Below, one piece after another: positions 5,430-60,979 of a DNA stretch of 64,000 nucleotides. The translations under genes and the position numbers were made by a program. Origin of the DNA: a virus; IMG/VR virus record IMGVR_UViG_3300045988_141640, positions 1 through 64,000 of that record; one strand, 5' to 3'. Below the pieces are notes generated by a model that was not told the DNA's origin, ran no database searches, and worked only from the letters and a program-made list of their open reading frames with translations. Position 1 is the first letter of the stretch. Each line of letters begins with the position of its first letter.

Positions 5430-6740
5430 TCATTATAAATTAAGCCCGTTTTTAGCAAAATCAATACTGTTTATATACATATTTTAAATTAATATTGCAT
5501 AATATTAATAGATCAGACCGTGTAAGACCGTTTTAGCCTAATATTATGTTTAATTTCAAGATTTTTCAATGTTAATTTGTGTTAAATTTTGTTGTAAGTG
5601 TCTGATAATGAAGGAATTACGAAATCTTCGTAGAAGTAATTTGTAAAGATTTTTATTTGTAAAGATTTCGAAATTCGATTGTCGTAGAAAAAAATTCTTT
5701 TTTATTTACAAACGTTGAGAATCGCGGTATATAAACGTGCGTAATTGCCTGTAAATAAGTGCCATACCCCCTTTTATAGAGGCTTCGCTGCGGGTGTGTC
5801 GCTCCCGATAAATTTTTTTCTGAAAATTTTTTTCCCCCAAATTTTGCTCGGATGTCTGATTTTGCGTTTTGGTGGTGTATTTTCGGTAGTTTTCAACAAA
5901 ATTGGATAAATCTTTACATAAAAAGTTACGAAAATCGTAGGTTTTTTGGTGTATTTCGTAGGTATGGTTGCATTTTTTATGTCTTTTTTTGCGGTGTAAG
6001 TTATTGGTTTACAGTATTCTTCGTTGATTTCGTCGTTTTGATATGTATCTATACTAAATTACGTATGCAATTTTGGTGTCTGTATGCGTATGTGTCGTAT
6101 ATGTGATGTACGTGTATATGTATTGTAATAGAGCATATACGGTGTACGTGTATGTATATTTTGTATATATATATTACTTTTAACATTTAATATACAAATT
6201 AATAGAGAGTAAATTTTCAAAGATTTACGATTCAATTTTTTTTGACAAGGCTAAACAGCTTGTTTTAAGTAACTTATCCTCTAATTTGCGCGAGTTTTTT
6301 GACAAGTGTTGAAAAACGAAGAGTTTACGAAGTCTACGAAAAATCAACGAATTTCGTAGGTTTTTTACGAATTTTCCCGAATCAATTAGTTGCATATGCA
6401 ACTATCGGTGTTGAGATTTTTTATTTTATGTTAAATTAAGTCAATTTTACATTTCTTAACGTAGAAAATAATAAGTAGATAAAAAATTATAGTTAAATCA
6501 TTTTAACTAAAATGAGAAAAATTATTACAAAAGTAAAAAATAACAACAATCAATATTTTTTACTTTTCCTATTCAAATAATACTGTGGACGTGAAAGTAA
6601 AAAATCTTGTGTAAAGAAAGATAAACTATCTTCCTTGACACGTATTTGTTAATCACATAAACATTTGTAGTTAATTAATTTAACTACTAGTTTTCGTATT
6701 GTTTTTTTTCGCTATATTTGCAGGTAAAATCAAGTAAAAT
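5430..6740. promoter_or_regulatory. ORF-free AT-rich divergent control region / putative replication origin with iterons
   Basis: Lies between divergent gene blocks. I counted 8 copies of TACGAA/TTCGTA, including the palindrome TACGAAATCTTCGTA at 5618-5632. TCGTAGGTTTTTT occurs twice (5935-5947, 6354-6366), TTGTAAAGATTT twice 16 bp apart (5641-5652, 5657-5668), and TTTTTTGACAAG twice (6238-6249, 6295-6306). A TG/TA alternating tract spans about 6061-6180. Confidence 0.45.
6713..6720 (+). promoter_or_regulatory. Bacteroidota -7 promoter box TATATTTG
   Basis: Matches TAnnTTTG; 20 nt upstream of the ATG at 6741. Confidence 0.5.
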
Positions 6741-10179: not shown

Positions 10180-11127
10180 TCAATTTTCTTCAAATCCTAT
10201 AATCTTGTCTATGCCTTTGTCGAAGTCATCATTAGATTTACTTTTAACTTCATTAATATCCTCATTAAACTCTAACTCTAATTGAATAGGTTTAGCATTA
10301 TATTTCCTCTCAAACAGTTCATTAAATTCTGATTTGGATTTAGAAATAGACATTAATGTGGTAACTTCTATAATCTGTTTTTTCAGGTGTTCTCTACCTA
10401 TTTCTGGTGTTAATGATTGATGCCATTTGTATTTCCAATTTCCTTTATCCGTTTTTCCCGTTTTCTCCTTAATTTTGTCAACAACTCCATCAGATAATAA
10501 ATCATAAATATACTTAGTTGTTAATTTACCAATAAAAGATGGCTTGTTTTTAATGTATTTAGGTATAAAAGGTAGCCCCCATAATCTATACACTTCTCTA
10601 TAAAAATCATCTGTAAAGGTTAATTGCCATTTCAAAATTTCTTCAGAAATATAAGCACTAAGGATTTTTTGCAATTCAAAATGTTCTCGTTCATTTTGAT
10701 ACCCAGTAGCTTCATCAATAAGGGCAATTATACCAATCTTAGCAAATGAAGATAATAAAATTTCGCATTGATTAGCAACTATTTGTTGTCTTTCTGTCAT
10801 TTTGACTCCACTGCGCCTAGCTCTTAAAATAGCCTCACAAATATCGGTCAAAACAGTAGCCTCATAACCATTAATTCGCTGTTTACCTTTAAAGCATATA
10901 ATTGGATCAAAATGTGCCGCGTCTTTATTGCTGAAAATGAAAGGTTTAAGTATTGAATTTGATAGGAACTGTGGCAATTTTGTGCCGCTTATATTCCCAT
11001 CAACTACTTTTAATATTTCTTGCATTTTCCTTCCTGATAGAACTCTTGTCCCATCTTCTAATACATAACATGGCAATTTGTTTTCACCAAGATTTAAAGT
11101 TCCTTCGTATTTTATTTGATTATCCAT
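10180..11127 (-). CDS. P63C domain protein
   Basis: N-terminus GTLNLGENKLPCYVLEDGTRVLSGR and central IIALIDEATGYQNEREHFELQKIL resemble the phage Mx8 p63 C-terminal (P63C) family. Confidence 0.6.
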   Translation of the reverse strand: MDNQIKYEGTLNLGENKLPCYVLEDGTRVLSGRKMQEILKVVDGNISGTKLPQFLSNSILKPFIFSNKDAAHFDPIICFKGKQRINGYEATVLTDICEAILRARRSGVKMTERQQIVANQCEILLSSFAKIGIIALIDEATGYQNEREHFELQKILSAYISEEILKWQLTFTDDFYREVYRLWGLPFIPKYIKNKPSFIGKLTTKYIYDLLSDGVVDKIKEKTGKTDKGNWKYKWHQSLTPEIGREHLKKQIIEVTTLMSISKSKSEFNELFERKYNAKPIQLELEFNEDINEVKSKSNDDFDKGIDKIIGFEEN

Positions 11128-12073
11128 ATACTAATTCTTTGTAAGTTAATCTACATTCAATATTCTGCAAAAATAAATCAAATCTTTCTTTATCAGATAA
11201 AGAGCGAGTGTTAAAACGATACACACACTCGTCAATATAACGTTGCATGTGTTGTTTAGACCAATGGTAGTATATACCCATAATACTTCTTTTCACTAAA
11301 GCCCAAAATCCTTCGATGTGATTTGTTGTCAGATCACCACTACCATAAAATCCTGCTCCATGATTTACATTTCTATGGTTGTAGTAAATATTAGCCCCAT
11401 CACTATAATTCCATTCGTCTGTATAAAGATTACTACCTTCTTTCACGTAATTATGAATAACAGAGAAAAGGGTATTTGATTTTGTGTCAGAAACAACTTT
11501 AGCAATAACCCTACCATTACGTTGAATCATTCCGAATACAGGTATTTTATCTTTGAAACTTCTACCTTGACAAGCCTTTACTTTCTTGTCTGCATGACGA
11601 TTTTTATTCTTCCCACCAATAAAAGTTTCATCTACCTCAATAGTACCACTCAATTTACCACCATCACTGTCATTATTGTCATCTTCATTTGACTTATCGT
11701 TTTCTATACCTAAAGCCTTTCTGATTCTGTGAAGCATAAACCATGCAGTTTTCTGAGTTACCCCAATATCTTTACTTAATTGTATTGAAGATATACCTTT
11801 TTTGTGGGATAATACAAGCCATATAGCCATAAACCAATAAATTAAAGGTAGGGAGGTTTTATGAAAAATAAGTTTAGTCTTAACATTAAAGTATTTTCCA
11901 GTGTTTTTACAACGATATTTATTATCTTTGCATTTGTAGACTTTGGAAGTAGGATCAAAAGGGGAAACGACCTTTGCACCCCACCTTCTTTCTTCCAGAT
12001 AATCTATACAGTGCTGTTCTGTTGGGAAAGCATCTTGTAAATCTTTTAATGATTTGAATCTACTATTAAACAT
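11120..12073 (-). CDS. IS1595-family (ISXO2-like) transposase
   Basis: N-terminal zinc-ribbon region (HCIDYLEERRWG...KCKDNKYRCKNTGK), an HTH segment (ISSIQLSKDIGVTQKTAWFMLHRIRKAL) and a DDE core; overlaps the P63C gene by 8 nt. Confidence 0.85.
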   Translation of the reverse strand: MFNSRFKSLKDLQDAFPTEQHCIDYLEERRWGAKVVSPFDPTSKVYKCKDNKYRCKNTGKYFNVKTKLIFHKTSLPLIYWFMAIWLVLSHKKGISSIQLSKDIGVTQKTAWFMLHRIRKALGIENDKSNEDDNNDSDGGKLSGTIEVDETFIGGKNKNRHADKKVKACQGRSFKDKIPVFGMIQRNGRVIAKVVSDTKSNTLFSVIHNYVKEGSNLYTDEWNYSDGANIYYNHRNVNHGAGFYGSGDLTTNHIEGFWALVKRSIMGIYYHWSKQHMQRYIDECVYRFNTRSLSDKERFDLFLQNIECRLTYKELVYG

Positions 12074-18293: not shown

Positions 18294-19508
18294 ATGCAAT
18301 TAGTTTATAAATTTGATATCAACCATTCTGACAGGCTTTGCTCTATCTGCCGTGTTACGAACAACCTGTACAACCAGGCGTTGTATATCATTCGTAACGA
18401 GTTGAAGGATAACGACAGGTGGCTGTTCTATCCCGACTTGGACAGGATAATGAAAAATGTCACCAACCTTGAAGGTACGGTAAATTACAGGCTTGTGAAA
18501 TCACACGTAGCCCAACAGACATTGCGCGTGCTTGATAAGGCAATGAAGGGATATGTCAAGGCAGTAAAGGATTGGGCGAAGAATCCGGAGAAGTATAACG
18601 GCAAGCCCGAACTGCCATGCTATCACAAACGGGGAGGGATGAGCAATGCTATATATACCAACCAGTCGTGCAAGATACATGACGGGTATATAATACTTGA
18701 CCGTGACTTGAAAATACCCGTTCCGCAATGGGAGAAGTACAAGGACAGAATCGAACGGTTCAAACAGGTTAGGATAATTCCAAAACGTACATACATGACC
18801 GTGGAGGTTGTATATGATTGTGTCTGTTCGGATAATGTCGGTACGGGTATGGCTTCGATAGACTTGGGTGTGAACAACCTTGCCACGCTGGTTTGCGGAT
18901 GCAATGCGCTGCTGTTTTCCGGCAAGGTTGTCAAGTCATACAACAGATGGTTTAACAAAACATTATCCATGCTGCAATCCATAAAGGACAGGCAGGGGAT
19001 AGAGAAACTGACAAACAGAATGAGAAAGATGTATGAGAAACGTGAACGGTTTATGAATGATGCGATGCACAAGACAAGCAGGCGTATTGTTGATTATCTT
19101 GTATCACACCATATAGGCACTCTTGCTGTAGGCTACAACAAAGGATGGAAGCAATCCGTCAATATGGGCGGAGTAAACAATCAGAAGTTTACATTCATCC
19201 CTTTTGCGAGGTTGAGAAGCTGCCTTAGATACAAGTGTGAGATTGCAGGTATCAACTATATCGAACATGAGGAAAGTTACACTAGCAAATGTGACGCTCT
19301 ATCTATGGAGGATATATGCAAGCATGATATCTATCTCGGTAAGCGTGTCAAGCGAGGACTGTTCAAGTCGGCAGTTGGAAAGGTTATCAATGCCGATGTC
19401 AACGGTGCGCTTAATATAGGTAGAAAAGTATTCGGTGATTCTTTTATGATAACTGATAGTGGGCGTTGGTATCGTCCCGAACGGATTAACGTTTTAAAAT
19501 GTGTGTAA
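18294..19508 (+). CDS. tnpB: TnpB-family RuvC nuclease (IS200/IS605 OrfB-like), zinc finger absent
   Basis: RuvC triad candidates SIDLGVNN, HEESYTSKC and INADVNGALNI. The segment between the second and third motifs lacks the CxxC...CxxC pairs present in the neighbouring TnpB. Confidence 0.8.
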   Translation: MQLVYKFDINHSDRLCSICRVTNNLYNQALYIIRNELKDNDRWLFYPDLDRIMKNVTNLEGTVNYRLVKSHVAQQTLRVLDKAMKGYVKAVKDWAKNPEKYNGKPELPCYHKRGGMSNAIYTNQSCKIHDGYIILDRDLKIPVPQWEKYKDRIERFKQVRIIPKRTYMTVEVVYDCVCSDNVGTGMASIDLGVNNLATLVCGCNALLFSGKVVKSYNRWFNKTLSMLQSIKDRQGIEKLTNRMRKMYEKRERFMNDAMHKTSRRIVDYLVSHHIGTLAVGYNKGWKQSVNMGGVNNQKFTFIPFARLRSCLRYKCEIAGINYIEHEESYTSKCDALSMEDICKHDIYLGKRVKRGLFKSAVGKVINADVNGALNIGRKVFGDSFMITDSGRWYRPERINVLKCV

Positions 19509-20529: not shown

Positions 20530-21720
20530 ATGCTGAGAGCCTACAAATATAGAATATATCCGACAGACGAACAGAAGGTTTTGCTTGCCAAGACCTTCGG
20601 CTGCTGTCGCTTTGTCTATAACTGGGCACTCAAGCTAAAGATTGAAGTATATGAACATGAGAAAAAGTCCGTATCATACAAGACTGTTCAGGATATTATG
20701 GTTAACGAATTGAAGAAAGATAAACAATGGCTTAACGAAGTAAATTCACAAGCCCTTCTTAATTCCATCCGCAATCTTGACACCGCCTTTAAGAACTTTT
20801 TCCGTGATACTCATGCAGTAGGCTTCCCTAAATTAAAAAGCAAAAAGGACAGGCAGAGTTTTCAGTGCCCCCAGCATTGTGTCGTGGATTTCGGCAAAGG
20901 AACAATCACCATACCGAAAGTAAAGGATATTCCTGCTGTGTTTCACCGTAAATTCAAGGGAATGGTCAAAACCGTCACCATCAGCATGACACCATCGAGA
21001 AAATACTTCGCTTCCGTATTGGTTGACACGGACATTGAAGAACTTCCGACAACACCGATACATGGCGATACGTGTTTGGGTATAGATTTGGGTATAAAAT
21101 CACTTGCCGTATGTTCTGACGGGAGAACGTTTGACAACCCGAAAAACCTGCGACGAAGCCTTGATCGTTTGAAACTACTTCAAAAGCGGTTGAGCCGCAA
21201 AAAGAAAGGTTCTGCCAACCGAAACAAGGCACGCATTCGCGTAGCTAGGTTGCATGAACATATTGCCAATTGCCGTAAGGATAACCTTCACAAAATCACC
21301 TATGCACTGACGCACGACAGCCAAGTGCGTACCATCTGCATGGAGGATTTGAACGTGAAAGGAATGATGCAAAACCACCACTTGGCACAGGCAGTAGGTG
21401 ACGCATCTTTCGGGATGTTTCTTACGCTGCTTAAATACAAATGCAGTTGGTATGGTGTGAACCTCATTCAGATAAACCGATTTGCCCCAAGCTCAAAGAC
21501 TTGCGGAAAATGCGGCTATGTGTATAAAGGATTGAAACTTAGCGATCGCAGTTGGATCTGCCCGGAATGTGGCACACACCATGACCGTGACTTCAATGCA
21601 GCTTGCAATATAAAGGAATTTGGCTTAAAATCCCTACCCACGGAGCGTGGGAAAGTTAAGCCTGTGGACTGTCCTAAAAAGCAATGGCAGGAAGAAGCAG
21701 GAAGAAGCTCATGCCTTTAG
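20530..21720 (+). CDS. tnpB: TnpB RNA-guided endonuclease family protein
   Basis: MLRAYKYRIYPT N-terminus; RuvC motifs GIDLGIK, CMEDLNVKGM and DRDFNAACNI; zinc finger CGKCG...CPECG. Confidence 0.9.
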   Translation: MLRAYKYRIYPTDEQKVLLAKTFGCCRFVYNWALKLKIEVYEHEKKSVSYKTVQDIMVNELKKDKQWLNEVNSQALLNSIRNLDTAFKNFFRDTHAVGFPKLKSKKDRQSFQCPQHCVVDFGKGTITIPKVKDIPAVFHRKFKGMVKTVTISMTPSRKYFASVLVDTDIEELPTTPIHGDTCLGIDLGIKSLAVCSDGRTFDNPKNLRRSLDRLKLLQKRLSRKKKGSANRNKARIRVARLHEHIANCRKDNLHKITYALTHDSQVRTICMEDLNVKGMMQNHHLAQAVGDASFGMFLTLLKYKCSWYGVNLIQINRFAPSSKTCGKCGYVYKGLKLSDRSWICPECGTHHDRDFNAACNIKEFGLKSLPTERGKVKPVDCPKKQWQEEAGRSSCL

Positions 21721-49800: not shown

Positions 49801-52699
49801 AACCAAAACATGTACACTTAAACTGGAAGATGGTGAGATCGGAGCTGTCGCAGTAGGTGATATCTGTATGGGTATCTATCATAACATCACTGGGAATGCT
49901 ACGGAGGATTATGACGATGGAAAGGGCAACAGGCGTTTTGCCGGATTCTGTACGGTCTATTTCACAATCACGGAAGTCACAGGTGAAAGAAACGAAACAT
50001 TCAAATACCAGTTGCGTCCTACATCTTCATCGTGGTCTTCTTCTTTCGATCCATTTGAAATGATGACATTCGTTGCATATGGTAACTTTACCAATGCAGG
50101 CCGTCAGACCTCAGTCTACGAAACAAGGACTTACACCCGTATGTTGTGGAAGCAGAATACATGGGAGATCTCCGCTGCCAATGTTGCCCTGCAATATGGA
50201 GACCTTTCTAATCTGAATATATTCGGATTGAACATGGATGGTTACTCCATGTATCTGAATAATATATATATGACAGGTATTATCAAGCAGATAAAGCCGG
50301 ACGGAACACCTGTACAGACTTTGAATTTCCGTGAGGAAGGATATATACCTGGCGTACATTACGATTACTACGACAGCTTGTCTTATAACGGAAGCATGTG
50401 GGCGTGTATCAATGAGGATGGTTCGTCTGCTGCACCGGGATCTAACGGCGATTGGCTGGAGATTGCTTCTAAAGGTGATACGGGAGCACCGGGGGCACCG
50501 GGAAAGGACGGTGTGAGCGTGACCAATAGCGGTCCGTGGTATTCCGGCTTGGTTGTTCCCAAAATGAGTATCGTTACAATGGGAGGAAGTTCGTTTCTTT
50601 CTAAGGTATCCACTACCAATCCTCCCTTGTGGTGCTGGACAGACAATGCCGGTAATCGGTTTACTTTCAATGATGGTGGCTATTGCTTGACGGGTGAGAT
50701 AAATACCGATGAATATGAACTTTTGGTTCAAAGCGGAAAGGACGGAAGAGATGGTACCAGTTATGAGAGGGTATTCATCCATACTACAACAGAGAGTAAA
50801 CCTGCCACTCCTTCCACGTCACAGACAGACGATTATGTGCCTTCCGGCTGGCATGATGATCCTGTAGGTGTTTCCAGCTCTCTGCCTTATGAGTGGATCA
50901 GTGAGAGGGAGAAGAAAAACGGTATATGGAGTAAATTCAGTGCTCCTGCCCTTTGGGCGAAGTACGGATTTGATGGTGCTGACGGTGCTGAGGGCGTAGC
51001 CGGAACGAGCATCATTTGGAAAGGTGATTTTTCCTCCGCTCCTTCCAATCCTCAGAACGGGTGGGCATACAAGAATACCACTGATAAGAAATCATATGTA
51101 TATCAGGATGGACAGTGGTATCAGATGACTATTGACGGAATTGATGGGAAGAACGGAAAAGACGGATTGAGTATTGTATGGAAAGGAGATCTCCAAACAC
51201 CTCCTTCTAATCCTCAGACCAACTGGGCATACCGGGATACCAATAATGGTCGTGTATATATATGGAACGGAACAGCATGGGCATTGATGGTTGTGGACGG
51301 ATCGGACGGTGCTGATGGTGCAGCCGGTTCTGACGGATTGAGCGTGTTTATAACTTATAATGACAGCACTTCCCAACCTTCTGTACCTACCGGGAACGGT
51401 ACTACTGGAGGATGGCATACAAATGCGACAAGTACAGCCATATGGATGTCACAGAAGGTTGCTGCGTCCGCATCTGACGGAGCATGGGGTACACCGATAA
51501 AAATCAAAGGTGACAAGGGTGATGATGGTGAAAAGGGGGACAAAGGAGATAAGGGAGATAAGGGAGATAAGGGAGATAAGGGAGATCAGGGCGTACAAGG
51601 AATACAGGGCTGTATCATACGGGATTCCGAATGGACAACCGGGGTAACGTACAGAAATGACGAAGCCCTTACAAGCGGCACGCGGTATATTGATATCGTA
51701 ATGGTGAGAAACAATAGTGCGGTGGACGGATGGGATGTTTATAAGTGTATTAAAACACATACATCTTCGTCTTCTATAACCTATACTAACACTACCTACT
51801 GGACGGAATTAAGTAATGTTGGTCCCATCTATACCAGTCTTATTATTGCCAAGAACGCCAGTCTTGATTTCGTCCAAGGGAATGAACTGATAATAAAGGA
51901 TTCGAATAATAATGTCGTAGCCGGTCTTACAGGAGGAAGCAGCAAGGAAGCCGGTACGACACCTGTAAGGATATGGGCTGGCGGTGGTGTTCCGGGCAGT
52001 GCTCCGTTCCGGGTGGATCAGGAAGGGAATCTTGTTGCAACGAAGGCAAATATCACGGGGACAATAACTGCCACAGGTGGAAATATTGGCGGTTTCAATA
52101 TTTCCACCTCAAGTATGGAATCGGTTTCCGGGAATAATGCCATGCTCCTTTCCGCCAACTTGGTAAGATTTACCGGAAGTTATTCAAGCGTGTTTATTGG
52201 AGCGGATACTTTTCCTTCATCTAGTGGGGGGGCAATATTATGCCCATCCCGTATTTCGGTTAATAGGAATATAACGAATACGGCGTATGGCAATGTGGGC
52301 ATGTATTTTGACATACAAGGTTCCCATGCTTATGATGATAATGATTTTCAGTATACCGGGAATCATGCGTTGTATATCGTCAAGGGGGACATCTGTGGGT
52401 TTAGGCTCAGATTGCGCAGAATAAGCAAGAGCACAACTTTGTCAGTGATGGATAGTGTTATCATGGCTGTAACGTCCGGTATTACGCTGACTGTTCCGTC
52501 CACTGCGGAAGACGGGCAGTTCTACTGGATAAGAAACGTTTCTGGTGGTAATGTGACCATAGCCGGAACAAATCTTGTCGGCTGGAATTCCGGGGAGGTC
52601 AGCACTTCGATAGGTTTGTCCAAGTCAAAGGCGGCAGCAATGTATTATGACAAGCATAATAACAAGTGGTTTATGAACTGGATTGATTGTTGGAATTAA
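46895..52699 (+). CDS. giant tail tip / host-specificity fibre protein with collagen-like repeats, 1934 aa
   Basis: Position after the tape-measure and Dit-like genes. Contains G-X-Y runs (GDTGAPGAPGKDG; GDKGDDGEKGDKGDKGDKGDKGDKGDQGVQGIQG), duplicated about 55-aa WKGD...W.Y modules and a GGSGTGSGTGSGGGSS linker. Confidence 0.65.
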   Translation: MILQIKRGNKVIAESADFSYSPSLQEVRKLTCEVVSVVPIEFKAYNSKSESEYDTVVYNGNTFILYQAPSGDNLNEAGKYKYSLLFYGKEVLLQNVAFLDIVSGTGGEINKIRYTHGGLFQFWGDAKQLAARIEANIESYNASLGAGYTGIGTWTLNVDAEGELTEDMIDITDGTNLFEALKNFYDKFYLNYYFSTTANGGIITITDKTRPSVNWTFKQGDGGGAVKVSSSVDTSTPVITRIIPQGGSRNVPPEYKKDAKPADESRYCPYILLPNDSDRNIRYYIDSEYGLKNYGVRGKTISNTFSGIYPSIRGKKLGDLYPSGLPEWDTYKADGEPDPQSGKVAGEGASASTRIDKIIGSTPIKSDDSDSFFIYMTSPGFNLGYKVYEDGDSSDKINDNVQPQYKPHAMFDKYRDFESFDIYGTRAYYDQPVKVTATFSGKMLFSILPIGSDAVGKKVKINLRMVLNRVLGQASPLKEVVIGEEGATGMLEIPYDKTSLVGYIEKGQNTTVTIRVEFTFDSDIPAESCKIGFSEEMTCNIHFGNQDGSQDRFYYKYASVTDAVFSMRTGTYTGTEFKINKNGIIPLYGEVNGDTGETEEDVAMFNKGARYKISCYRTDSDNAKLPLYTDGKSPSIAAGTEFVILNIVMPESYVTMAENTLEKAALDYLSRYDHENRTVSLDISSGFVAEHPNLFIDFIEGNMLKVRDDGIGVFDFSDNGQIVDMQLQIQSLEIKYSKDNMFPSYSCTIARRKILSFYERLAQENQTASTQNTTNITLGGSGTGSGTGSGGGSSNITNADHAKSAYTLDDDTPVLNWFLSALNDDEAEGIINFLKGLKISGNLINRIVKQGDRDVTYTDEDVMSALRVMVEIENSVEKMKEIFLRKDVADSTKFLLSMFAGAVFGKNGFASGLTGFGAKIFDTGHGEFESMFIRRFLEVPELRYNRVMVTLGDKWRAPGAGIIETVDTGTKTCTLKLEDGEIGAVAVGDICMGIYHNITGNATEDYDDGKGNRRFAGFCTVYFTITEVTGERNETFKYQLRPTSSSWSSSFDPFEMMTFVAYGNFTNAGRQTSVYETRTYTRMLWKQNTWEISAANVALQYGDLSNLNIFGLNMDGYSMYLNNIYMTGIIKQIKPDGTPVQTLNFREEGYIPGVHYDYYDSLSYNGSMWACINEDGSSAAPGSNGDWLEIASKGDTGAPGAPGKDGVSVTNSGPWYSGLVVPKMSIVTMGGSSFLSKVSTTNPPLWCWTDNAGNRFTFNDGGYCLTGEINTDEYELLVQSGKDGRDGTSYERVFIHTTTESKPATPSTSQTDDYVPSGWHDDPVGVSSSLPYEWISEREKKNGIWSKFSAPALWAKYGFDGADGAEGVAGTSIIWKGDFSSAPSNPQNGWAYKNTTDKKSYVYQDGQWYQMTIDGIDGKNGKDGLSIVWKGDLQTPPSNPQTNWAYRDTNNGRVYIWNGTAWALMVVDGSDGADGAAGSDGLSVFITYNDSTSQPSVPTGNGTTGGWHTNATSTAIWMSQKVAASASDGAWGTPIKIKGDKGDDGEKGDKGDKGDKGDKGDKGDQGVQGIQGCIIRDSEWTTGVTYRNDEALTSGTRYIDIVMVRNNSAVDGWDVYKCIKTHTSSSSITYTNTTYWTELSNVGPIYTSLIIAKNASLDFVQGNELIIKDSNNNVVAGLTGGSSKEAGTTPVRIWAGGGVPGSAPFRVDQEGNLVATKANITGTITATGGNIGGFNISTSSMESVSGNNAMLLSANLVRFTGSYSSVFIGADTFPSSSGGAILCPSRISVNRNITNTAYGNVGMYFDIQGSHAYDDNDFQYTGNHALYIVKGDICGFRLRLRRISKSTTLSVMDSVIMAVTSGITLTVPSTAEDGQFYWIRNVSGGNVTIAGTNLVGWNSGEVSTSIGLSKSKAAAMYYDKHNNKWFMNWIDCWN
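51545..51589 (+). repeat. 9-bp tandem repeat (GGAGATAAG x4 plus GGAGATCAG) encoding GDK collagen triplets
   Basis: Read directly from the sequence. Confidence 0.85.
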
Positions 52700-52710
52700 A
52701 AATATAAATT

Positions 52711-52992
52711 ATGAAAATAGATTTTACAAAATTTCCTTGTTACACAGGGATAAAGAAGGATATCAGAGTTGAGATGGATATTGCGGAGTCATTGGCTAAT
52801 GCCATATACACAAATGTTCCGGGCATAGCCGCCAGTTCTTTGGCTCATAAGATTTACTCTGGCAAGGGAGAAGTAGATTACGATGAACGGGAAATACGAA
52901 TTATACGTGATTGTACACCGTTATTTTCTGGAGTTTATGCGGATTCCATAAACGATTATTTGGACACAAAAGAAAAGGAGGAACAAGGATGA
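52711..52992 (+). CDS. hypothetical tail-module protein, 93 aa
   Basis: ORF track. Confidence 0.45.
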   Translation: MKIDFTKFPCYTGIKKDIRVEMDIAESLANAIYTNVPGIAASSLAHKIYSGKGEVDYDEREIRIIRDCTPLFSGVYADSINDYLDTKEKEEQG

Positions 52993-53618
52993 TATTACAA
53001 GCAGGTTATGATTGTTATCTGACACAGGCCGAGGATATGCCTCTGTCGGAACGAAGATTTGAAAATCAGGTAGTAATAAACAGCCCTGAGGATGTGGCTG
53101 TGTGGAAAGAGATCACATCGAAACAGAAGGAGCAGATGATTGCCGAAGCATCATTTATTGATGTGGCGGCTATAGACGTTGAAGCACTTGGCCGTGTGAA
53201 TACGCTGCTCAATGATATTGCGGCAAACATCAACAATGCCGGACTTACTGTAGAGGAAGCATTGGCGAAGAAAGAGTACTTCCCCGCATGGGAGGATCTG
53301 ATAGGTACAGAGGTTGATGTGTCGTTCCGGTTCCGTTACGATGGTACACTCTATGAGGTTATACAGAAACATACACCGCAGGAGGACTGGAAGCCGGGAA
53401 CGGGTACGGAATCCTTGTACAAGGTTGTGCAGATAGAGCACTCCGGCACACTGGATGATCCTATACCTTGGGTACATAACATGGTGCTGGAAGAAGGCAA
53501 GTATTACACCGATAAGGAGGTTCTTTATCTCTGTATCCGTGACAGCGGAATAGGCATGGCATTTGACTTGGGAAATATTGTTTCGGGCGGATATGTTCAA
53601 GTAGTAATAAATAATTAA
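52989..53618 (+). CDS. hypothetical tail-module protein, 209 aa
   Basis: ORF track 52911-53618; start moved to the ATGA overlap at 52989 (MILQAGYD). Confidence 0.45.
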   Translation: MILQAGYDCYLTQAEDMPLSERRFENQVVINSPEDVAVWKEITSKQKEQMIAEASFIDVAAIDVEALGRVNTLLNDIAANINNAGLTVEEALAKKEYFPAWEDLIGTEVDVSFRFRYDGTLYEVIQKHTPQEDWKPGTGTESLYKVVQIEHSGTLDDPIPWVHNMVLEEGKYYTDKEVLYLCIRDSGIGMAFDLGNIVSGGYVQVVINN

Positions 53619-53630
53619 AAAAATACGATT

Positions 53631-54020
53631 ATGGCAGACAAAAAATTAAATCAAGTATCGCAGTTGACGGATTTTGATTATGCGTTGGTTGTAAAAGGGG
53701 ATGACGTGGCAAAAGTTACAAAACAGCAGCTAGCTACAATACTGGGAGGACTGATGAATAGTTTGAAGCTGTTCCCGTTCATGAATAAAGGGAGATTAAC
53801 AGGAACAGATGACTTAAATAATGTATTAACATCAGGAATCTATGAAATTAGTGCCCCTACAACAGGGGTACTAAATGGGAAAGATATTCAATACGGAATC
53901 TTAATAGTATTCTCAGCAGGACAAAGAATACAGTTATTAGGTAATGGCTTATACGGAAATGCATATTTTAGGACAGGTAGAGATAATGGAACATGGTATG
54001 ATTGGGTATCTATATATTGA
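53631..54020 (+). CDS. small tail-fibre / receptor-binding protein: constant N-terminus (aa 1-37) plus currently expressed shufflon cassette A
   Basis: Fibre-like N-terminus KLNQVSQLTDFDYALVVKGDDVAKVTKQQLATI; crossover motif at codons 38-42 (LGGLM). Confidence 0.65.
   Translation: MADKKLNQVSQLTDFDYALVVKGDDVAKVTKQQLATILGGLMNSLKLFPFMNKGRLTGTDDLNNVLTSGIYEISAPTTGVLNGKDIQYGILIVFSAGQRIQLLGNGLYGNAYFRTGRDNGTWYDWVSIY
53742..53755 (+). repeat. shufflon crossover site S1 CTGGGAGGACTGAT
   Basis: First of seven copies of CTGGGRGRACT; lies inside the expressed gene. Confidence 0.7.
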
Positions 54021-54044
54021 CATAAAATCTATTCGAAACGAGAG

Positions 54045-54058
54045 CTGGGAGGACTGAT
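54045..54058 (+). repeat. shufflon site S2 CTGGGAGGACTGAT (direct orientation)
   Basis: Identical 14 nt to S1; in frame with cassette B. Confidence 0.7.
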
Positions 54059-54335
54059 TCCTACCGCAAGTAATAAAAATAAAGGTTTAGTTGCTCCTGA
54101 TATGTTCTCATTTACAAGGGATGCCGTAACAGACGCTAATGGTTGTAGTGTATTCGGTAGTTACAAGTTGTCCCCCGGAGTCTTGAATGCCCCTGATGGA
54201 ATTAAATATGGTGATGTGTTATTCGCCGTTCCATGGGATACAAACACAATACACCAATTTATATATACGATTAGCGGAGGTACGTATAGAAGGGTTGGAG
54301 GAAAAGAAAATTGGAGTGAATGGGTAAAAGATTGA
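54059..54335 (+). other. silent C-terminal cassette B (92 codons after LGGL)
   Basis: Reads LGGL-IPTASNKNKGLVAPDMFSF...; same frame as the active gene but separated from it by its stop codon. Confidence 0.6.
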
Positions 54336-54386
54336 CAAGAAAAAGTGGTATTTCCACGAACTGGGGGAATTCTTGGGTATAAAAAA

Positions 54387-54417
54387 CGGGTGGTCCGGTA
54401 CAAGCCGGTTCCACCCG
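54387..54417. terminator. bidirectional hairpin between convergent cassettes B and C
   Basis: CGGGTGG-T-CCGG...CCGG-TT-CCACCCG. Confidence 0.5.
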
Positions 54418-54427
54418 ATACGACAAA

Positions 54428-54695
54428 TCACTTATAATACGCTAATAGCCTATAATGAAGTTTTCGGCTAGTATTAGAATGAAAAGTTACACCATTTGAA
54501 CTAAACTCTATAGATAAGCTGGTTGATTTTTCACCTGCAATAATCTTACTTCTATCAGTATAAATATTGTCCGAAACTGTTAGGATGAAGCCGGAGATTG
54601 CATAATTATCATAAAACGCATATATGCCTTCTCGCAACTTCATGTTTACATCAACATCAGGCTTTAAATCAATTGTTCCAACTGAAGAAACCTCT
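54428..54695 (-). other. silent inverted cassette C (89 codons after LGGL)
   Basis: In frame with S3; the track M is a TTG; no ATG near the 5' end. Confidence 0.6.
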
Positions 54696-54709
54696 AGAAG
54701 TCCCCCCAG
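54696..54709 (-). repeat. shufflon site S3 (CTGGGGGGACTTCT on the minus strand)
   Basis: Inverted copy of the core. Confidence 0.65.
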
Positions 54710-54757
54710 TCCGCAGAGTGGGAGAAATTTTGTTGCAAATCTTTCCAATAAAATTGT

Positions 54758-55022
54758 CTATTGTTTAAGCATAAACTCCTTAAATATTCCCCATCCGTTA
54801 TAAAAACGCCTAAAGCCAACGCTATCGAAACCAATAGTATATACAATTTGTACGATATATCCAGCTGCGTCATTGTAAACAATCATAATGGAATAGTCCG
54901 GAACAACATTAATATTTCCACTCCCAAACAAACGATATATTCCATTTTCTTTAGTATTGTTTACTTCATCGTTTGTTTTGCAGGTCCCTTTTGACATGAA
55001 CGGGAACAATTTTAAATTCCCC
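54758..55022 (-). other. silent inverted cassette D (88 codons; closest homologue of cassette A)
   Basis: MGNLKLFPFMSKG versus MNSLKLFPFMNKG in cassette A. Confidence 0.65.
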
Positions 55023-55036
55023 ATCAGTCCCCCCAG
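55023..55036 (-). repeat. shufflon site S4 (CTGGGGGGACTGAT on the minus strand)
   Basis: 13 of 14 nt identical to S1. Confidence 0.7.
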
Positions 55037-55050
55037 AAGTAAAAAATAGT

Positions 55051-55303
55051 TTACTTGTGCGCAATATTCCTTACTCTGACAGATTCTTCTCCTAATAAAG
55101 CTGTTGCATACAATTTACTTTCTTGTACTCTATACTTGATTCGATAGTCTTTTTCTCCTAATATAAATGAATTATCGTAATTGATTACGACTAAACTTGA
55201 CACGGAATCTAAATAGGAATTTGAAACGTAATAAACACCAGTACCATTTGCTATTAGTGTTTCTTCTCCTTTTGCTAAAGTGAAAGAACTATAGGTATTT
55301 CCT
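55051..55303 (-). other. silent inverted cassette E (84 codons; no start codon, absent from the ORF track)
   Basis: My translation: LGGL-IGNTYSSFTLAKGEETLIANGTGVYYVS...RVRNIAHK-stop. Confidence 0.6.
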
Positions 55304-55317
55304 ATCAGTCCCCCCAG
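55304..55317 (-). repeat. shufflon site S5 (CTGGGGGGACTGAT on the minus strand)
   Basis: Identical to S4. Confidence 0.7.
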
Positions 55318-55342
55318 ATCGCCAACAGGCAGAAATTCTTGT

Positions 55343-55700
55343 TTAAATTCCTACCTGTGTTAGTGTGCTGATATCTATATTTACCTTGGTTGCTGAAATG
55401 GTATTATTCATCGGTATACGGTTAGCAAAACATACTACAGCGTAGCCCCATCCTGCTACATAGACATAATAGTTATCATCATCATCTTTATACATTTTTA
55501 TTGATAACGGTCCAGAATTATGAGTAATACATAAATTATTACCATAACCATGTCCGCAGATAATAGAGTAGTCATCAGCTATTGCTGAATTACCTTCACC
55601 AACAATCTTAACAATCAAATTTTTATTTCTCGTAAAATCAATCCTATATAAAGCCGGAGAGTCTGTGTTTGCTGATAGATTTATATAGTTTCCATTTTGC
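55343..55700 (-). other. silent inverted cassette F (119 codons)
   Basis: In frame with S6; the track M is a TTG. Confidence 0.6.
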
Positions 55701-55714
55701 AGAAGTCCTCCCAG
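55701..55714 (-). repeat. shufflon site S6 (CTGGGAGGACTTCT on the minus strand)
   Basis: Inverted copy; shares the GGACTTCT end with S3. Confidence 0.65.
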
Positions 55715-55733
55715 AAGGATTTTGCTAATCTTC

Positions 55734-56046
55734 TTAAGGCAATAAATTTTGATAAGCAATTAAAAAAGGAACCCTGCTTCCTTCAACTCCTTCAATTTTG
55801 GAAGTCATAATAGTAGTATAGTCATTTTCAAAAGTGAAAGTAAATAATGTTCCATCAACATATTCTTTATACCCTCCAATATATTTTATATTTTTAGTTG
55901 CTGGAGATATTACAGCTATTGATGGATATAAATTATAATATTGACTACATATCACCAATATGCCATTTGCTTTTATTCTTTTTGATTCACCTTTATGTAA
56001 CGAAAATGATTCACTAGTAAAACCATTGATAATATTATTTATCTTT
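55734..56046 (-). other. inverted cassette G (104 codons; has its own ATG two codons upstream of the site)
   Basis: MLLGELLKINNIINGF... Confidence 0.55.
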
Positions 56047-56060
56047 AACAGTTCTCCCAG
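56047..56060 (-). repeat. shufflon site S7, degenerate (CTGGGAGAACTGTT on the minus strand)
   Basis: Most divergent copy; encodes LGEL. Confidence 0.5.
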
Positions 56061-56129
56061 AAGCATTTTTTGTGGTTTATTTTGTAAATACAGAAGATTT
56101 TTTTTTAACTTTAAAACAAAAAGTTGAAT

Positions 56130-57368
56130 ATGTTAGAGAAGATCAGATACCGTTTGGTTTATAACCGACAAAACAAGTTAAATCGACAAGGGACAGCCCT
56201 AGTCCAAATAGAAGCCTATTTGAATCAGAGAAAGGTATATTTTAAAACCAATGTTTATCTAAAGCCGGAGTGTTGGAGTAAGGATGGCGCTCAAGTAATT
56301 AACCATCCGCAATCGAATGAGCTTAACGCAATGCTATACGAGAAGATACTGGAGTTGCAGGCTATAGAACTTAGCTACTGGAAAAGAGGGCTTGAATCAA
56401 ACCTTTCCACGTTAAAGGAGGCTGTAAAAAAGGGAATTAAACCAGTTGTGTCGTTTTTAAAATTTGCAATACAAGCGATAGAGAATTCTGATAGAAAACC
56501 GGGAACCAAGGATAACATGCTGGGCACGGTAGCCACTTTGAAGGAATTTCGGAACGTGATAGAGTTCACAGACATCAATTATACGTTTCTAAAGGAGTTT
56601 GACGCATTTCTTCGCAATAAGGGATTGAAGGTAAACACGGTAGGGAAACACATGAGAATACTTCGTACCTTGGTCAACGAAGCAATAAATGAAGGTTATA
56701 TATTACAGGAGGCATACCCTTTCCGTAAGTTCAAGATCAAGAAAGAGAAGAAGGAGCATAACTTCCTGATGCCCGCAGACTTGGAGAAGCTGGAGAATCT
56801 TGAACTGCCGGACAGGAAGAACAACAGTCGGCACATACTGGACGCATTTCTCTTCTGCTGCTATTGCGGATTGAGATTCTCTGATTTCAAGCAATTGACT
56901 TATAAAAATCTCGTAACAGTTGACGGAAAGGAATGGCTGGTCCTAAACAGCGTCAAAACAGGTGTGAAACTCAATATTCCGCTATATCTGCTGTTTAACG
57001 GGAAGGCTCTGGGTATAATGCGGAAGTACGACAGCATCGAACAACTGGCTGCATTAGGTTGCAATTCGGACACCAATCGGACGTTGCAGAAATTGGGAAG
57101 GATGGCGCGTATCAGCAAGAAATTTACCTACCATACAAGTCGTCATACTTGTGCTACTCTGTTGGTTCACCAAGGCGTTCCGATAACCACCGTCCAAAAA
57201 CTCTTGGGGCATACATCGGTCAAGACAACAGAGATATATTCCGAGGTGTTTGATGAAACGATTATCAAGGATCTGACAAGGGCTAACCAGAAGTATTCTA
57301 AAAGTAGAAATGTAAAACAAAATCAAATAAAATCTCAAAAATACCCGGAAAAATACCTCAGGCAGTAG
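56130..57368 (+). CDS. int: tyrosine recombinase / integrase (IntDOT-like, with N-terminal arm-binding domain)
   Basis: Arg box CGLRFSD, HTSRHTCATLL (HxxR) and LLGHTSVKTTEIYSEV (catalytic Tyr); first ATG at 56130 (track start 56124 is a TTG). Confidence 0.85.
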   Translation: MLEKIRYRLVYNRQNKLNRQGTALVQIEAYLNQRKVYFKTNVYLKPECWSKDGAQVINHPQSNELNAMLYEKILELQAIELSYWKRGLESNLSTLKEAVKKGIKPVVSFLKFAIQAIENSDRKPGTKDNMLGTVATLKEFRNVIEFTDINYTFLKEFDAFLRNKGLKVNTVGKHMRILRTLVNEAINEGYILQEAYPFRKFKIKKEKKEHNFLMPADLEKLENLELPDRKNNSRHILDAFLFCCYCGLRFSDFKQLTYKNLVTVDGKEWLVLNSVKTGVKLNIPLYLLFNGKALGIMRKYDSIEQLAALGCNSDTNRTLQKLGRMARISKKFTYHTSRHTCATLLVHQGVPITTVQKLLGHTSVKTTEIYSEVFDETIIKDLTRANQKYSKSRNVKQNQIKSQKYPEKYLRQ

Positions 57369-57611
57369 AAATCTATAGAGGCTATCTGTTTTATACTTGT
57401 TTTTCCGACTTCAATATATTTATATTCTATTTGTAAATAAAAATGTAAATAATTTACCTTTATTTTTCTATAAATATTTCTTACTGTTCTAGAATTTTTC
57501 CTTATTGTGCTAGAAGTAAAAAATATTGCATTAATAGCAATTTGGTAAGCCTTAACAGTGCGGCATATAAGGGAAGTACATTGCTTCTTTCTATGAGTCC
57601 AGGGTTATAAG

Positions 57612-57655
57612 AACAATCCTCCCCCCCTTACCGTTTATCAGTAAGGGGGATTGTT
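57612..57655. terminator. strong hairpin downstream of the minus-strand gene 57655-57972
   Basis: AACAATCC...CCCCCTTAC pairs with GTAAGGGGGATTGTT. Confidence 0.55.
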
Positions 57656-57972
57656 TATTTCGTTTTCATTAGTTTTTCCTCAAACTCCGCAATGATACAG
57701 TCTGCATCACCGCCATGCACCCAATTATCTAATACGGAAGAGAGAACTTCTGTTGCTTTTTCAACCGAAACATTATCTGTTACTTTGCCACGACACTTAA
57801 ATTCAGTATTTATCACTTCTGATTCAGAAGCTAAACTAATCCAACATAGACACGCGATTCCAAATTCATCCTGACATAAATCACGTAACGAACATTTTGA
57901 ACAATCTTTATGTTTCGTTTCCTTCAATTCATGTAGCACTCCGTCTATTATTATTCCGTTCTTTACTTCCAT
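57655..57972 (-). CDS. hypothetical Cys-rich protein, 105 aa
   Basis: ORF track 57655-58032; start moved to MEVKNG, preceded by AAGGAG. Confidence 0.45.
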   Translation of the reverse strand: MEVKNGIIIDGVLHELKETKHKDCSKCSLRDLCQDEFGIACLCWISLASESEVINTEFKCRGKVTDNVSVEKATEVLSSVLDNWVHGGDADCIIAEFEEKLMKTK

Positions 57973-58063
57973 ATTCAATCTCCTTTCGTTCCAAAATAAA
58001 TAGCACCAAGTATGACAAACGAGCATCCGCAAAGGAATGCAAATATATGACTAACTATCGGGT

Positions 58064-58888
58064 TCATTTTATTCCTTTAAAAATATGACTAATAACATCT
58101 ACTGTCCATCCGTTTCCTAACAGCCCCATGCCTATATGTGGCTGTACCGACTTGGTGTATCCTTCGGGTACGGTCTGTAATCTTTCCGCTTCCGTAATAT
58201 TGGGTGTTCTGAAACCTTTTTCGGAATTACAGTCAGGTGAGTTGAATATCAACGGTGTAAGTGATTTTTTATATCTTCTCAACAGTGATTCGGGGTTCTT
58301 GGCAAACCTGTTCCATGATTCAAGCATACACCATGACTTTTTCTTCTCAACATATCCATCAGTGATGATGTCCTTGAACAGTATTCCCTTGTCCTTCCAT
58401 GCAGGTATTTCCCAGTTGCACCAGTAGTATCTTGCTCTCATTTGTGCGGAAAAATCGGAGCTGTTGATATACACATAGTCTACTCCAAGATGTGACGAAA
58501 TCAAATCAGCCCAATCGGATTTCATCTTCACATTTTCAAGCAGAAACTTTATATTAGGATTGAACTGTCTGATATGGTTCAATATGTTGACATATTCAAA
58601 GAATAATCCCGAACGCTCGCCATCGAAGTTCAGTTTCTCTTTCCCTAACTGTGAAAAATCCTGGCATGGTGTTCCACCAATAAGTAAATCAATATCTTCC
58701 CACTGTATATCCCATTTATTCCAGTTCCTAATATCCCCTAATTCAATTATATCGGGATAATTATCCAGTGCAACTTTGATAGACGGTTCGTTTATTTCGC
58801 TTGCGTAATACTTGTCTACCTTTATGCCTGCTCTTTCCAGTGCAATACGTCCGCAAGCTATCCCGTCACATAAACTCAATACGTTCAT
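58064..58888 (-). CDS. DNA (cytosine-5)-methyltransferase, short form (274 aa)
   Basis: Motif I LSLCDGIACG, motif IV GGTPCQDFS, motif VI LLENV, motif VIII SAQMRAR, motif X GNGWTV. Confidence 0.85.
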   Translation of the reverse strand: MNVLSLCDGIACGRIALERAGIKVDKYYASEINEPSIKVALDNYPDIIELGDIRNWNKWDIQWEDIDLLIGGTPCQDFSQLGKEKLNFDGERSGLFFEYVNILNHIRQFNPNIKFLLENVKMKSDWADLISSHLGVDYVYINSSDFSAQMRARYYWCNWEIPAWKDKGILFKDIITDGYVEKKKSWCMLESWNRFAKNPESLLRRYKKSLTPLIFNSPDCNSEKGFRTPNITEAERLQTVPEGYTKSVQPHIGMGLLGNGWTVDVISHIFKGIK

Positions 58889-58966
58889 AGATATGTTTTT
58901 TTTTAATTTTCAGCAAATATACGACATAAAACCGTATGCAACCAATACGTTTAACTATTTTTTAAT

Positions 58967-58974
58967 TATCTTTG
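58967..58974 (+). promoter_or_regulatory. -7 box TATCTTTG (the divergent partner TATATTTG lies on the minus strand at 58914-58921)
   Basis: TAnnTTTG matches facing 58998 (+) and 58888 (-). Confidence 0.5.
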
Positions 58975-58997
58975 CGATAATAGATAAAATTCATAAT

Positions 58998-59249
58998 ATG
59001 CAGTTTTCCATAGTACCAAAAATAGATGCCGAGATTATGTTTTCGGAAGATGATCTGTCCGTTTTCAGACAATCGACAGACGGTCTGTATTATATGATCC
59101 ATACCGAGAAGGTCATGGAAGTGATGCCTATGACGTTGCCGGATGACGAAACGGAACACCCTTTCCCTTACGACACATACGACACGGGCACAAGAGAGTT
59201 TGAGAAGCTGCTTTTATCTGATGAGTGGGCTAAAACAGACGTGATATGA
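58998..59249 (+). CDS. hypothetical acidic protein, 83 aa
   Basis: ORF track 58812-59249; start moved to MQFSIV, downstream of the promoter box. Confidence 0.45.
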   Translation: MQFSIVPKIDAEIMFSEDDLSVFRQSTDGLYYMIHTEKVMEVMPMTLPDDETEHPFPYDTYDTGTREFEKLLLSDEWAKTDVI

Positions 59250-60979
59250 GAAAGATAGGTTTTTTTAACATAGGAAGGCTTGGACTTGTAAAATCGGCAG
59301 GTACAGGAAAAACCGATATAAACAAGGTGATAGAAAAATGGATACCAAAACACATGGTGTTCTGGTACGATATGTCAAAGCCTGTGGATACATATATTCC
59401 TAGCGTTACCTATGCAAATCCTTTTGTTAATGATGGTGGAAAATTAACTTATGATAATGCTATAAATAAGTGTATAATAACCCATACACCTACAAATAAC
59501 AATAATATTGCATTTTGGCAAATAATTGTAAAACCGTTACAATATGTAGAATCTTATAAAATACGTGTAACAGGATTGCCAACAGGTTTCACCATTAAAG
59601 GAAGGCTTGGATATGATATTCAGATAACATCTGATGGAGAATATGACATACCTGAATACAGGAACAGTAGCACAACAAGCTCATCTTATCCTGGATTTTA
59701 TTTGGCAGGCGATAATGTGAATGATGTGGATTGTAATATTGTGGTAGAAGAAATACCTACAAAACAATCCGTTCCCACAAACGAGATACTAAAAGCCAAT
59801 CCATACCTGCAAGACCATAGCGGAAACAACAGGCCGCTGAAACTTAACAATTTCCTGTTCGCTGCAATGAGCGGTGTGGGTGGGTATGACATTTCTAGCA
59901 CCAATATTCTACCCGATAGAGCAAATGCTACTGTTACGGATAACAGGGTTATACATATTACTAAGAAACTATCCACCACAGATAACATGGTAAACATAGT
60001 TCCGTCAAATTCCAATCCTACACATAGATTTAAGGTTACAGGACTTTCTGATGGTAGGCAGGTTAGTTTGGTAAACAGAAATGGCGGATTTTATACTTTT
60101 GACAACGGGGAACATGAAGTTACATTGACTTATCCCGAAGGAACCACTTCATTGTATAACGCCATAGGAGTTACAGGGGATATAGGAGATATGGACGTAA
60201 CAATAGAGTTCCTGCCTAAATATCCCAACGCCCTAGTGACAGACGGAGTGGATGATTACGGTGTTGTGGAGAACTTGCAGCAGGGCGTTAAGGTGTTGTT
60301 TGTAACTATCAATCCGTTTGTTGATGGAAAGTTTATCTATGACCAAAGACTGAATACTACTGAACCTTGGCTGTTTGCCGTATTCAATGACAAAGGTAGT
60401 ATTGCTTATAATAGTAGGAACTCAAACGGCAAGACCTATATTGATGGAACACTGAATGAATCTACAATAGTTTCCGCTTTATTAAACAAAAAGCAAATAA
60501 TCACCATAGTAAACAATGATGTGACAGGTGATAAAACTAAAACTCCTGTATTCTTTAGCAATACTGACCATGATAGCGGATGGATTAGTTCAGCTTTCTA
60601 CAACTCCTTCGGGTTCGATTCCGTCCCCACCAAACAGAATGACGGATTCACCGAGCAGGATTTGATTGACTACTATATACCGAAGGCTATCGTAACGATA
60701 ACGGTGGTGGACGTATCAGGCTCACCCATACAGGATGCAACGGTCACGGTGGAAGGTATACAGTACAAAACATTGTCTGACGGTACGGTAAAAGTACGGG
60801 GTATGGCAAATAGCACAATGTCGCTGTCTGTAAAGAAAGACGGGTATATGCCGTTTTCTGACAACTCGTGGAAGTTTGCCGATTCAAGGATAACGCTAGA
60901 GGTGCTTAGGAATACCGTAATTACCGAAAATGGATACAGCATATTGCTTGAAAACGATGGTTTAATATTAACGGAATAA
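59246..60979 (+). CDS. tail-fibre-like protein with a C-terminal carboxypeptidase-regulatory-like beta-sandwich, 577 aa
   Basis: ITVVDVSGSPIQDATVTVEGIQYKTLSDGTVKV pattern; ATGA overlap with the upstream gene; lies upstream of the DGR target. Confidence 0.4.
   Translation: MRKIGFFNIGRLGLVKSAGTGKTDINKVIEKWIPKHMVFWYDMSKPVDTYIPSVTYANPFVNDGGKLTYDNAINKCIITHTPTNNNNIAFWQIIVKPLQYVESYKIRVTGLPTGFTIKGRLGYDIQITSDGEYDIPEYRNSSTTSSSYPGFYLAGDNVNDVDCNIVVEEIPTKQSVPTNEILKANPYLQDHSGNNRPLKLNNFLFAAMSGVGGYDISSTNILPDRANATVTDNRVIHITKKLSTTDNMVNIVPSNSNPTHRFKVTGLSDGRQVSLVNRNGGFYTFDNGEHEVTLTYPEGTTSLYNAIGVTGDIGDMDVTIEFLPKYPNALVTDGVDDYGVVENLQQGVKVLFVTINPFVDGKFIYDQRLNTTEPWLFAVFNDKGSIAYNSRNSNGKTYIDGTLNESTIVSALLNKKQIITIVNNDVTGDKTKTPVFFSNTDHDSGWISSAFYNSFGFDSVPTKQNDGFTEQDLIDYYIPKAIVTITVVDVSGSPIQDATVTVEGIQYKTLSDGTVKVRGMANSTMSLSVKKDGYMPFSDNSWKFADSRITLEVLRNTVITENGYSILLENDGLILTE

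Follow-up and report, generated by a model that had tools for sequence, protein, structure and literature searches.

The 64-kb stretch of viral DNA considered here (positions 1 to 64,000 of the IMG/VR virus record IMGVR_UViG_3300045988_141640, referred to as the window in its whole length) carries a compact array of coding cassettes that includes: (i) a small expressed gene composed of a constant 5' part and one cassette, (ii) seven copies of a 12-bp site, termed S1 to S7, each of which opens one of seven cassettes, termed A to G, (iii) a single hairpin at the junction of the plus- and minus-strand cassettes, and (iv) an adjacent gene for a tyrosine recombinase. The locus is very probably a shufflon that switches the C-terminal receptor-binding knob of a small tail-fiber tip protein in a Phocaeicola/Bacteroides phage.

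Sites, cassettes and the tip gene

A pattern search of the window recovers seven exact copies (zero mismatch) of CTGGGRGRACTK, all within 53742-56060; 0.01 copies are expected by chance, and none of 100 dinucleotide shuffles reaches seven. Two sites are on the plus strand, S1 (53742-53753; CTGGGAGGACTG, encoding LGGL), which is the expression site, and S2 (54045-54056). The other five are on the minus strand, S3 (54698-54709; CTGGGGGGACTT), S4 (55025-55036), S5 (55306-55317), S6 (55703-55714; CTGGGAGGACTT) and S7 (56049-56060; CTGGGAGAACTG). The layout is convergent, (+)(+)|(-)(-)(-)(-)(-), around the single hairpin. S1 and S2 are spaced by 303 bp and share an identity that spans 14 nt (CTGGGAGGACTGAT), which bears out a preliminary description of the locus in which they were identical direct repeats flanking cassette A, with B following in the same orientation. 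At position 6 of the site, S1, S2, S6 and S7 have A, whereas S3, S4 and S5 have G. A logo of 276 unique sites confines conservation to 11-12 bp, and the upstream flanks of internal sites are not conserved.

Read as Leu-Gly-Gly/Glu-Leu, all seven sites open stop-terminated frames of 88-123 codons, and an ATG-initiated upstream frame precedes S1 only. This constant 5' part (53631-53741, plus strand) encodes 37 amino acids (aa; MADKK...QQLATI), and no other frame beside a site has both an ATG and an open frame upstream. Cassette A (53742-54020, plus strand; 92 codons and a stop) is the one currently expressed. The other six are silent: B (54045-54335), opened by S2 on the same strand as A, and, on the minus strand, C (54428-54709; opened by S3), D (54758-55036; opened by S4 and 39% identical to A), E (55051-55317; S5), F (55343-55714; S6) and G (55734-56060; S7). 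Among database proteins, the constant 37 aa head many different cassettes at 92-100% identity. In the homologs P0038, P0041, P0048 and P0057, cassette A reads through into the next same-strand cassette; either the TGA stop is missing or the gene caller took TGA as sense.

An AlphaFold model of the constant part joined to A (predicted local distance difference test score, pLDDT, 83.8) superimposes on the R2-pyocin tail-fiber knob 6ct8 with a root mean square deviation of 2.3 Å over 86 columns, also matches 6cl6 and resembles the baseplate fiber proteins of phage phi812. The site is inside a helix (31-44) ahead of the knob, and homologs are labeled by NCBI as 'pyocin knob domain-containing protein [Phocaeicola vulgatus]'. 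Based on the fold of the model, the naming of the homologs and the position of the site in the pre-knob helix, the cassettes are predicted to be alternative receptor-binding tips, and the tip would set the host range. Weighing against this reading, the cassettes match no family in Pfam or NCBIfam; PHROGs likewise provides none, and in IMG/VR cassettes B and D have distant relatives only.

Upstream of the expressed gene are two small genes and a gene for a 1934-aa collagen-repeat fiber protein, directly 3' of which the expressed gene sits in the phage structural module. The closest relative (L084) differs from the window by one base across 51572-60000 and has 213 bp extra (its positions 5668-5880) at window position ~51522, inside the fiber gene. 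Insertion sequence (IS) genes at 11120-12073 (minus strand), 18294-19508 and 20530-21720 (both plus strand) comprise one IS1595-type transposase and two IS605 OrfB/TnpB-like genes; despite these, the window is otherwise phage-like.

The recombinase and its relatives

The tyrosine recombinase gene (56124-57368, plus strand; 414 aa, likely start ATG at 56130) begins 63 bp past S7. The enzyme has Arm-DNA-bind_5, Phage_int_SAM_5 and Phage_integrase domains (Pfam) and the catalytic motifs R (GLRFSD), HxxR (HTSRHT), H (LLGH) and Y (EIYSE), while NCBIfam provides sub-threshold Xer and integron integrase models only. The domains detected by Pfam are those of tyrosine recombinases, with no resolvase-type (serine recombinase) domain among them. 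Just past the recombinase is a DNA cytosine methyltransferase gene (58064-58888, minus strand; PF00145 in the homologous locus L084).

Relatives retrieved by the recombinase comprise 80 IMG/VR loci, at 95-100% identity, and a contig of P. vulgatus ATCC 8482 (L081), at 98%. Cassettes and arrays were compared across 84 arrays (83 related loci and the window), and hairpins across 95 relatives. Megablast of 53600-57400 finds no match in the phage collection, and the genome collection provides three short contigs only. Contigs of the 80 loci end on the shufflon side of the recombinase in 28 cases and on the other side in 11.

The enzyme is presumed to be the shufflon invertase. This role is inferred from adjacency only, and the enzyme could also serve as an integrase, which counts against the assignment. 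In that alternative, the inversions would be catalyzed by another enzyme, host- or phage-encoded. The arm-binding domain is typical of integrases, and the best tblastn match of the recombinase among phages (62% identity) is annotated as 'integrase' in Bacteroides phage BS-TP2; that phage, however, has a second integrase. While no second tyrosine recombinase is detectable in the 64-kb window, the last site lies a constant 72-76 bp from the recombinase start in almost all of the ~80 relatives, and the recombinase is kept at 95-100% where the surrounding constant regions and cassettes differ. A preprint on BV01-like phages likewise describes a recombinase that adjoins the array, and mentions the known BV01 integration site (PMC13596623). 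An integrase with no part in the inversions is considered improbable, and a role as invertase is preferred. In BS-TP2, which is a cultured phage (L129, PQ571275.1 1-3000), small minus-strand genes precede the 62% homolog and the second integrase lies further on; this phage may hold a related array that wraps around the ends of the record.

Inversion isomers and activity of the array

In the proposed mechanism, the expressed gene would consist of the 37-aa constant part, the 12-bp site (LGGL) and one cassette, with six further promoterless cassettes downstream that each open with the same site. The adjacent tyrosine recombinase would pair a plus-strand site with a minus-strand site and invert everything between them. 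Inversion of plus site i with minus site j swaps the inner plus run with the inner minus run; thus, the form (+)^m(-)^n, the innermost pair and the junction are invariant. By enumeration, 1440 arrangements are reachable from the present state, and B and C are innermost in every one of them; this pair and the hairpin would ride inside every inversion, with the hairpin flipping each time. Ten single inversions are possible from the present state, five of which change the expressed cassette: a single inversion at S1 would bring any of C, D, E, F and G into the place of A, while B takes two. All 46 complete arrays (expression site included) have the form (+)^m(-)^n, with m of 1-10 and n of 1-8 (m=1 in 15, m=2 in 19 and m>=3 in 12).

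These rules clarify several claims of the preliminary description. The S1xS3 inversion that it drew on paper, which gives C+ | B- A- D- E- F- G-, is confirmed by the enumeration, and its reading of same-strand cassettes as the trace of inversions is supported. The window is indeed one inversion away from expressing C, but is equally one step from D, E, F and G. The state with every silent cassette inverted was described as the canonical ground state; as m=1 is found in 15 of 46 arrays and is one value among many, this state holds no privileged position, and the present order is one of 1440 reachable isomers. A constant-C fusion exists in public data, in that P0121 is 97% identical to the predicted 130-aa constant-C product, the cassette C of P0125 is identical to that of the window, and in P0121-P0129 the constant region runs into C; with this cassette set, the exact product of S1xS3 is not found, and the silent cassettes of the constant-C loci differ from those of the window. 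One of the constant-C proteins, P0126, lacks exactly the four site codons (ATI|LEVSS) and would be a locked, non-invertible C-expressing variant, unless this is an assembly error.

The junction hairpin (54381-54417, assigned to the minus strand) comprises a stem-loop at 54387-54417 and an A6 run at 54381-54386 that is read as U6 on the minus-strand transcript. A U-tract follows the stem on the minus strand only, directly past the stop of cassette C. Folding energies are -22.6 kcal/mol on the plus strand (z -4.1) and -19.7 kcal/mol on the minus strand; the structure was missed by a simple terminator scan because of an internal bulge and was found by direct folding, and Rfam finds nothing credible in 53000-58000. 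Each of the 95 relatives has one hairpin per array; 94 of them have the A-run beside it, and only 5 a T-run on the opposite side. Its orientation is divided 32:25 among relatives and flips between isomers. In a few relatives, another hairpin takes its place, as would suit a terminator. On these features, the hairpin is a putative intrinsic terminator for the sense transcript of C, and would be correctly placed after C in the C-expressing isomer. The claim that it terminates in either state is supported for the C-sense strand, which has the U-tract, and not for the present plus-strand transcript, which meets the stem without one. This bidirectional terminator, the 'ground state' and the emphasis on C are the three over-readings of the earlier account.

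That the array is active is borne out, for the lineage, by inversion isomers and by two junctions in one sample. L074 and L075 have flanks of 99.7-99.9% identity and differ by the inversion of a 1097-bp segment, an S1xS3-type event; the reverse complement of this segment matches at 100% identity, and its ends fall exactly at S1 and S3 of the two arrays. L006 and L016 differ by a site-bounded event of the S1xS4 type, with 99.87% identity in the inverted segment. Relatives also hold cassettes of the window itself in rearranged order: an S2xS6-type inversion separates L131 (c5+ B+ | C- D- E- F-) from L134 (c5+ F+ E+ D+ C+ | B-), at 99.76% identity, B is inverted in L134, L136 and L139, and in L139 B- A- directly adjoin the recombinase. 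Two alternative junctions at S6 are noted in sample ERZ28598740. Its 16-kb scaffold_803 terminates at window position 55704, inside S6, while its 2-kb scaffold_11834 (99.95% identical to the window) has the 55-nt flank of S6 at both ends, joined to A and to F; therefore, both orientations of the S1-S6 segment are present in one population. An independent assembly from a second sample (Logan ERR1578642) breaks at the same base of S6. The inverted 55-nt ends (L140) were considered as an assembler artefact, and this was rejected: the k-mers that run from flank through site to A must come from reads, and the partner scaffold of the same sample ends at exactly that base. In recombinant sites, positions 8 and 12 stay with the cassette; strand exchange is placed at or left of site position 8.

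Several observations weigh against this picture where the window's own phage is concerned. Its long contigs from five samples all have the order A+ B+ C- D- E- F- G-, which is the dominant, assembled majority form in five metagenomes; this may reflect rare switching or selection for A. The evidence on the window's own array consists of assembled contigs, not reads, and a contig of the order C+ B- A- D-... was not found among the relatives. The single order in five samples would agree with an array that is frozen in this genome, with homologous recombination or horizontal exchange among phages as the origin of the differences between relatives. Blocks of cassettes have passed from one phage backbone to another, as in L131, where the cassettes are 99.5% identical to the window and the recombinase side 95.5%, and cassettes of at least 98% identity are found behind constant regions of less than 50%. 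By contrast, the isomers break precisely within the 12-bp sites and have inverted segments of 100% identity, the two junctions occur together in a single sample, in DNA 99.95% identical to the window, and the hairpin orientations are divided among relatives. All seven sites also match the consensus, the recombinase is intact, and activity at the level of reads is reported for BV01-like phages (PMC13596623). A frozen array is thus judged highly unlikely, and an array that undergoes inversion is the preferred reading.

A second question is which sites can pair. For tyrosine recombinases such as Cre, lambda Int and Flp, the overlap regions of two partner sites must generally be identical. Of 69 arrays, 62 have a single base at position 6 throughout and seven, that of the window among them, are mixed; the base is shared by 94% of site pairs within an array vs. 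63% of pairs from different arrays, and no such homogenization is seen at positions 8 and 12. If position 6 were in the strand-exchange overlap, as would be in keeping with exchange at or left of position 8, the partners would have to match. Thus, S1, S2, S6 and S7 (A) would intercombine, while S3, S4 and S5 (G, and all on the same strand) would hold C-D-E together as a locked block, with a mismatch-tolerant event as the only route to the expression site. Because S1 and S3 differ at position 6, the S1xS3 inversion may be disfavored in the window, even with an active array. Every rearrangement seen among near-identical relatives used A-type sites (S1xS6, S2xS6, A- beside the flank of S7 and the S6..S7 absence of G), with C-D-E contiguous throughout; however, these are three or four events only, and as 4 of the 10 possible inversions join two A-type sites, three such events out of three would arise by chance with a probability of ~0.06. 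The uniformity of position 6 could instead be a by-product of repeated exchange, and cassette C carries A at this position in other arrays, so the base can change. This constraint on S1xS3 is offered as a tentative proposal, within the wider reading of an active shufflon.

The direct sites were also expected to allow the deletion of cassette A. Loss of the 303-bp S1-S2 segment is not found, while site-bounded losses do occur: L131 lacks G, with boundaries in S6/S7, and L122 has a single cassette. L131 was considered as a simple deletion derivative of the window and was downgraded to a site-bounded absence of G, its recombinase side being the more diverged; the lack of G may reflect exchange between phages rather than deletion. 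The persistence of same-strand runs of up to 10 cassettes in relatives argues that deletion between direct sites is uncommon.

Adjoining the hairpin is a pseudo-site (54361-54372, plus strand; CTGGGGGAATTC) that had been taken as a possible decayed cassette. It is kept as CTGGGGG(A/G)ATT at <=60 nt from the hairpin, on the side of the A-run, in 28 of the 95 relatives, and more decayed forms are also present. The pseudo-site is conserved rather than a chance match, and is a real relic or possibly a weak site. In L122 (Logan SRR17769758, 7380-7530), constant-C is followed by the hairpin and then by the pseudo-site, which is joined straight to the recombinase-proximal flank, and no further cassette is present. 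Possibly the pseudo-site still works, so that the array can collapse or a knob-less 'off' product can form; a junction of the constant region to the pseudo-site was found in none of the loci searched.

Possible cassette exchange, known systems and significance

The 314 cassettes of the arrays form 83 clusters at 85% identity, and at least four unrelated families of constant region share the site and a 95-100% identical recombinase. Behind constant regions of <50% identity are 129 cassette pairs at >=98% nucleotide identity (up to 98-100%), the identity of cassettes is often higher than that of the recombinases between loci, and the boundaries of exchanged blocks coincide with sites. As near-identical cassettes sit behind unrelated constant regions and exceed the recombinase in identity, a cassette pool common to several phage lineages, accessed via the shared site, is suggested. 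In a joint and more speculative reading, plausible yet held with limited confidence, the sites and recombinase would form an integron-like platform for the exchange of tips across lineages, with position-6 compatibility classes and a possibly functional pseudo-site. If true, receptor-binding tips would be traded between phage lineages, beyond internal switching.

A Research Square (Res Sq) preprint of September 2026 describes an active tail-fiber shufflon in BV01-like Phocaeicola vulgatus phages, with a core TGGGAGAACT, a flanking recombinase, six tail-fiber variants and read-level evidence (PMC13596623). The array of the window belongs to this type, which was already described in 2026. Positions 2-11 of S7 are identical to the core of the BV01-like site, from which the remaining sites of the window depart at R positions only. 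Both systems have a recombinase beside the array, an overlap of the array with the distal end of a tail-fiber gene, and a stop codon in every cassette. Several configurations are found in reads of the BV01-like phages; in relatives of the window, an assembly fork at S6 with both the A and the F junction (at 99.95% identity) and isomer pairs are found. The differences are in number (six variants, described as three cassettes, vs. seven cassettes), in the constant part (~95 aa in BV01-type proteins vs. the 37 aa, MADKK..., of the window), in the site set, which is mixed at position 6 in the window, and probably in the phage backbone, as 53600-57400 has no megablast match in a phage collection that does not include the BV01 genome.

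The Rin shufflon of Bifidobacterium prophages is also phage-encoded, and its array ends with a tyrosine invertase (Mavrich et al. 2018, PMC6109161). Like the array of the window, Rin combines a constant N-terminal receptor-binding part with several variable C-terminal cassettes, each preceded by a short (11 bp) asymmetric crossover site. By contrast, its rix site (TTCCCTAACCC) is unrelated to the site of the window, its invertase is without the arm-binding domain that is represented by Arm-DNA-bind_5 in the window's recombinase, and the host phylum differs.

The mechanistic prototype is the shufflon of the R64/IncI1 plasmids, in which the Rci recombinase acts on sfx sites, in inverted orientation only, to vary pilV. 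The window resembles R64 in the use of multiple inversion by a tyrosine recombinase to swap the C-terminus of a surface adhesin, in an asymmetric site with a conserved short core and an unconserved outer flank (as in the 276-site logo), and in the long same-orientation runs of its relatives, which are expected if deletion is suppressed. The two differ in the target (the thin-pilus adhesin pilV vs. a phage tail-fiber tip), in the reading of segments (from both ends in R64 vs. unidirectional, convergent cassettes) and in the architecture of the recombinase, which in the window is of a Bacteroidota integrase type (PF00589 with Arm-DNA-bind_5/SAM_5) and has no Rci-type hit in NCBIfam. Gin, Cin, Min and Pin (of Mu, P1, p15B and e14) are serine invertases that use an enhancer and Fis, with Min acting on multiple segments. 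These systems also swap tail-fiber C-termini by inversion, changing host range, but are functional analogs only, as a tyrosine recombinase with no resolvase-type domain is found in the window.

With the window, a system first reported in 2026 gains a seven-cassette example on what is probably a different phage backbone. The comparison with relatives also provides rules for use with read data, namely the invariant form (+)^m(-)^n, the inner pair and hairpin that are carried along, the 1440 isomers and the silent minus-strand cassettes that are all one step from expression. Two testable ideas follow: the position-6 compatibility classes and a cassette pool between phage lineages. Bacteroidaceae vary their capsules by invertible promoters; a phage able to show any of seven receptor-binding tips would be a counter-move to this capsule variation, and such tips matter for the prediction of host range and the design of phage therapy.

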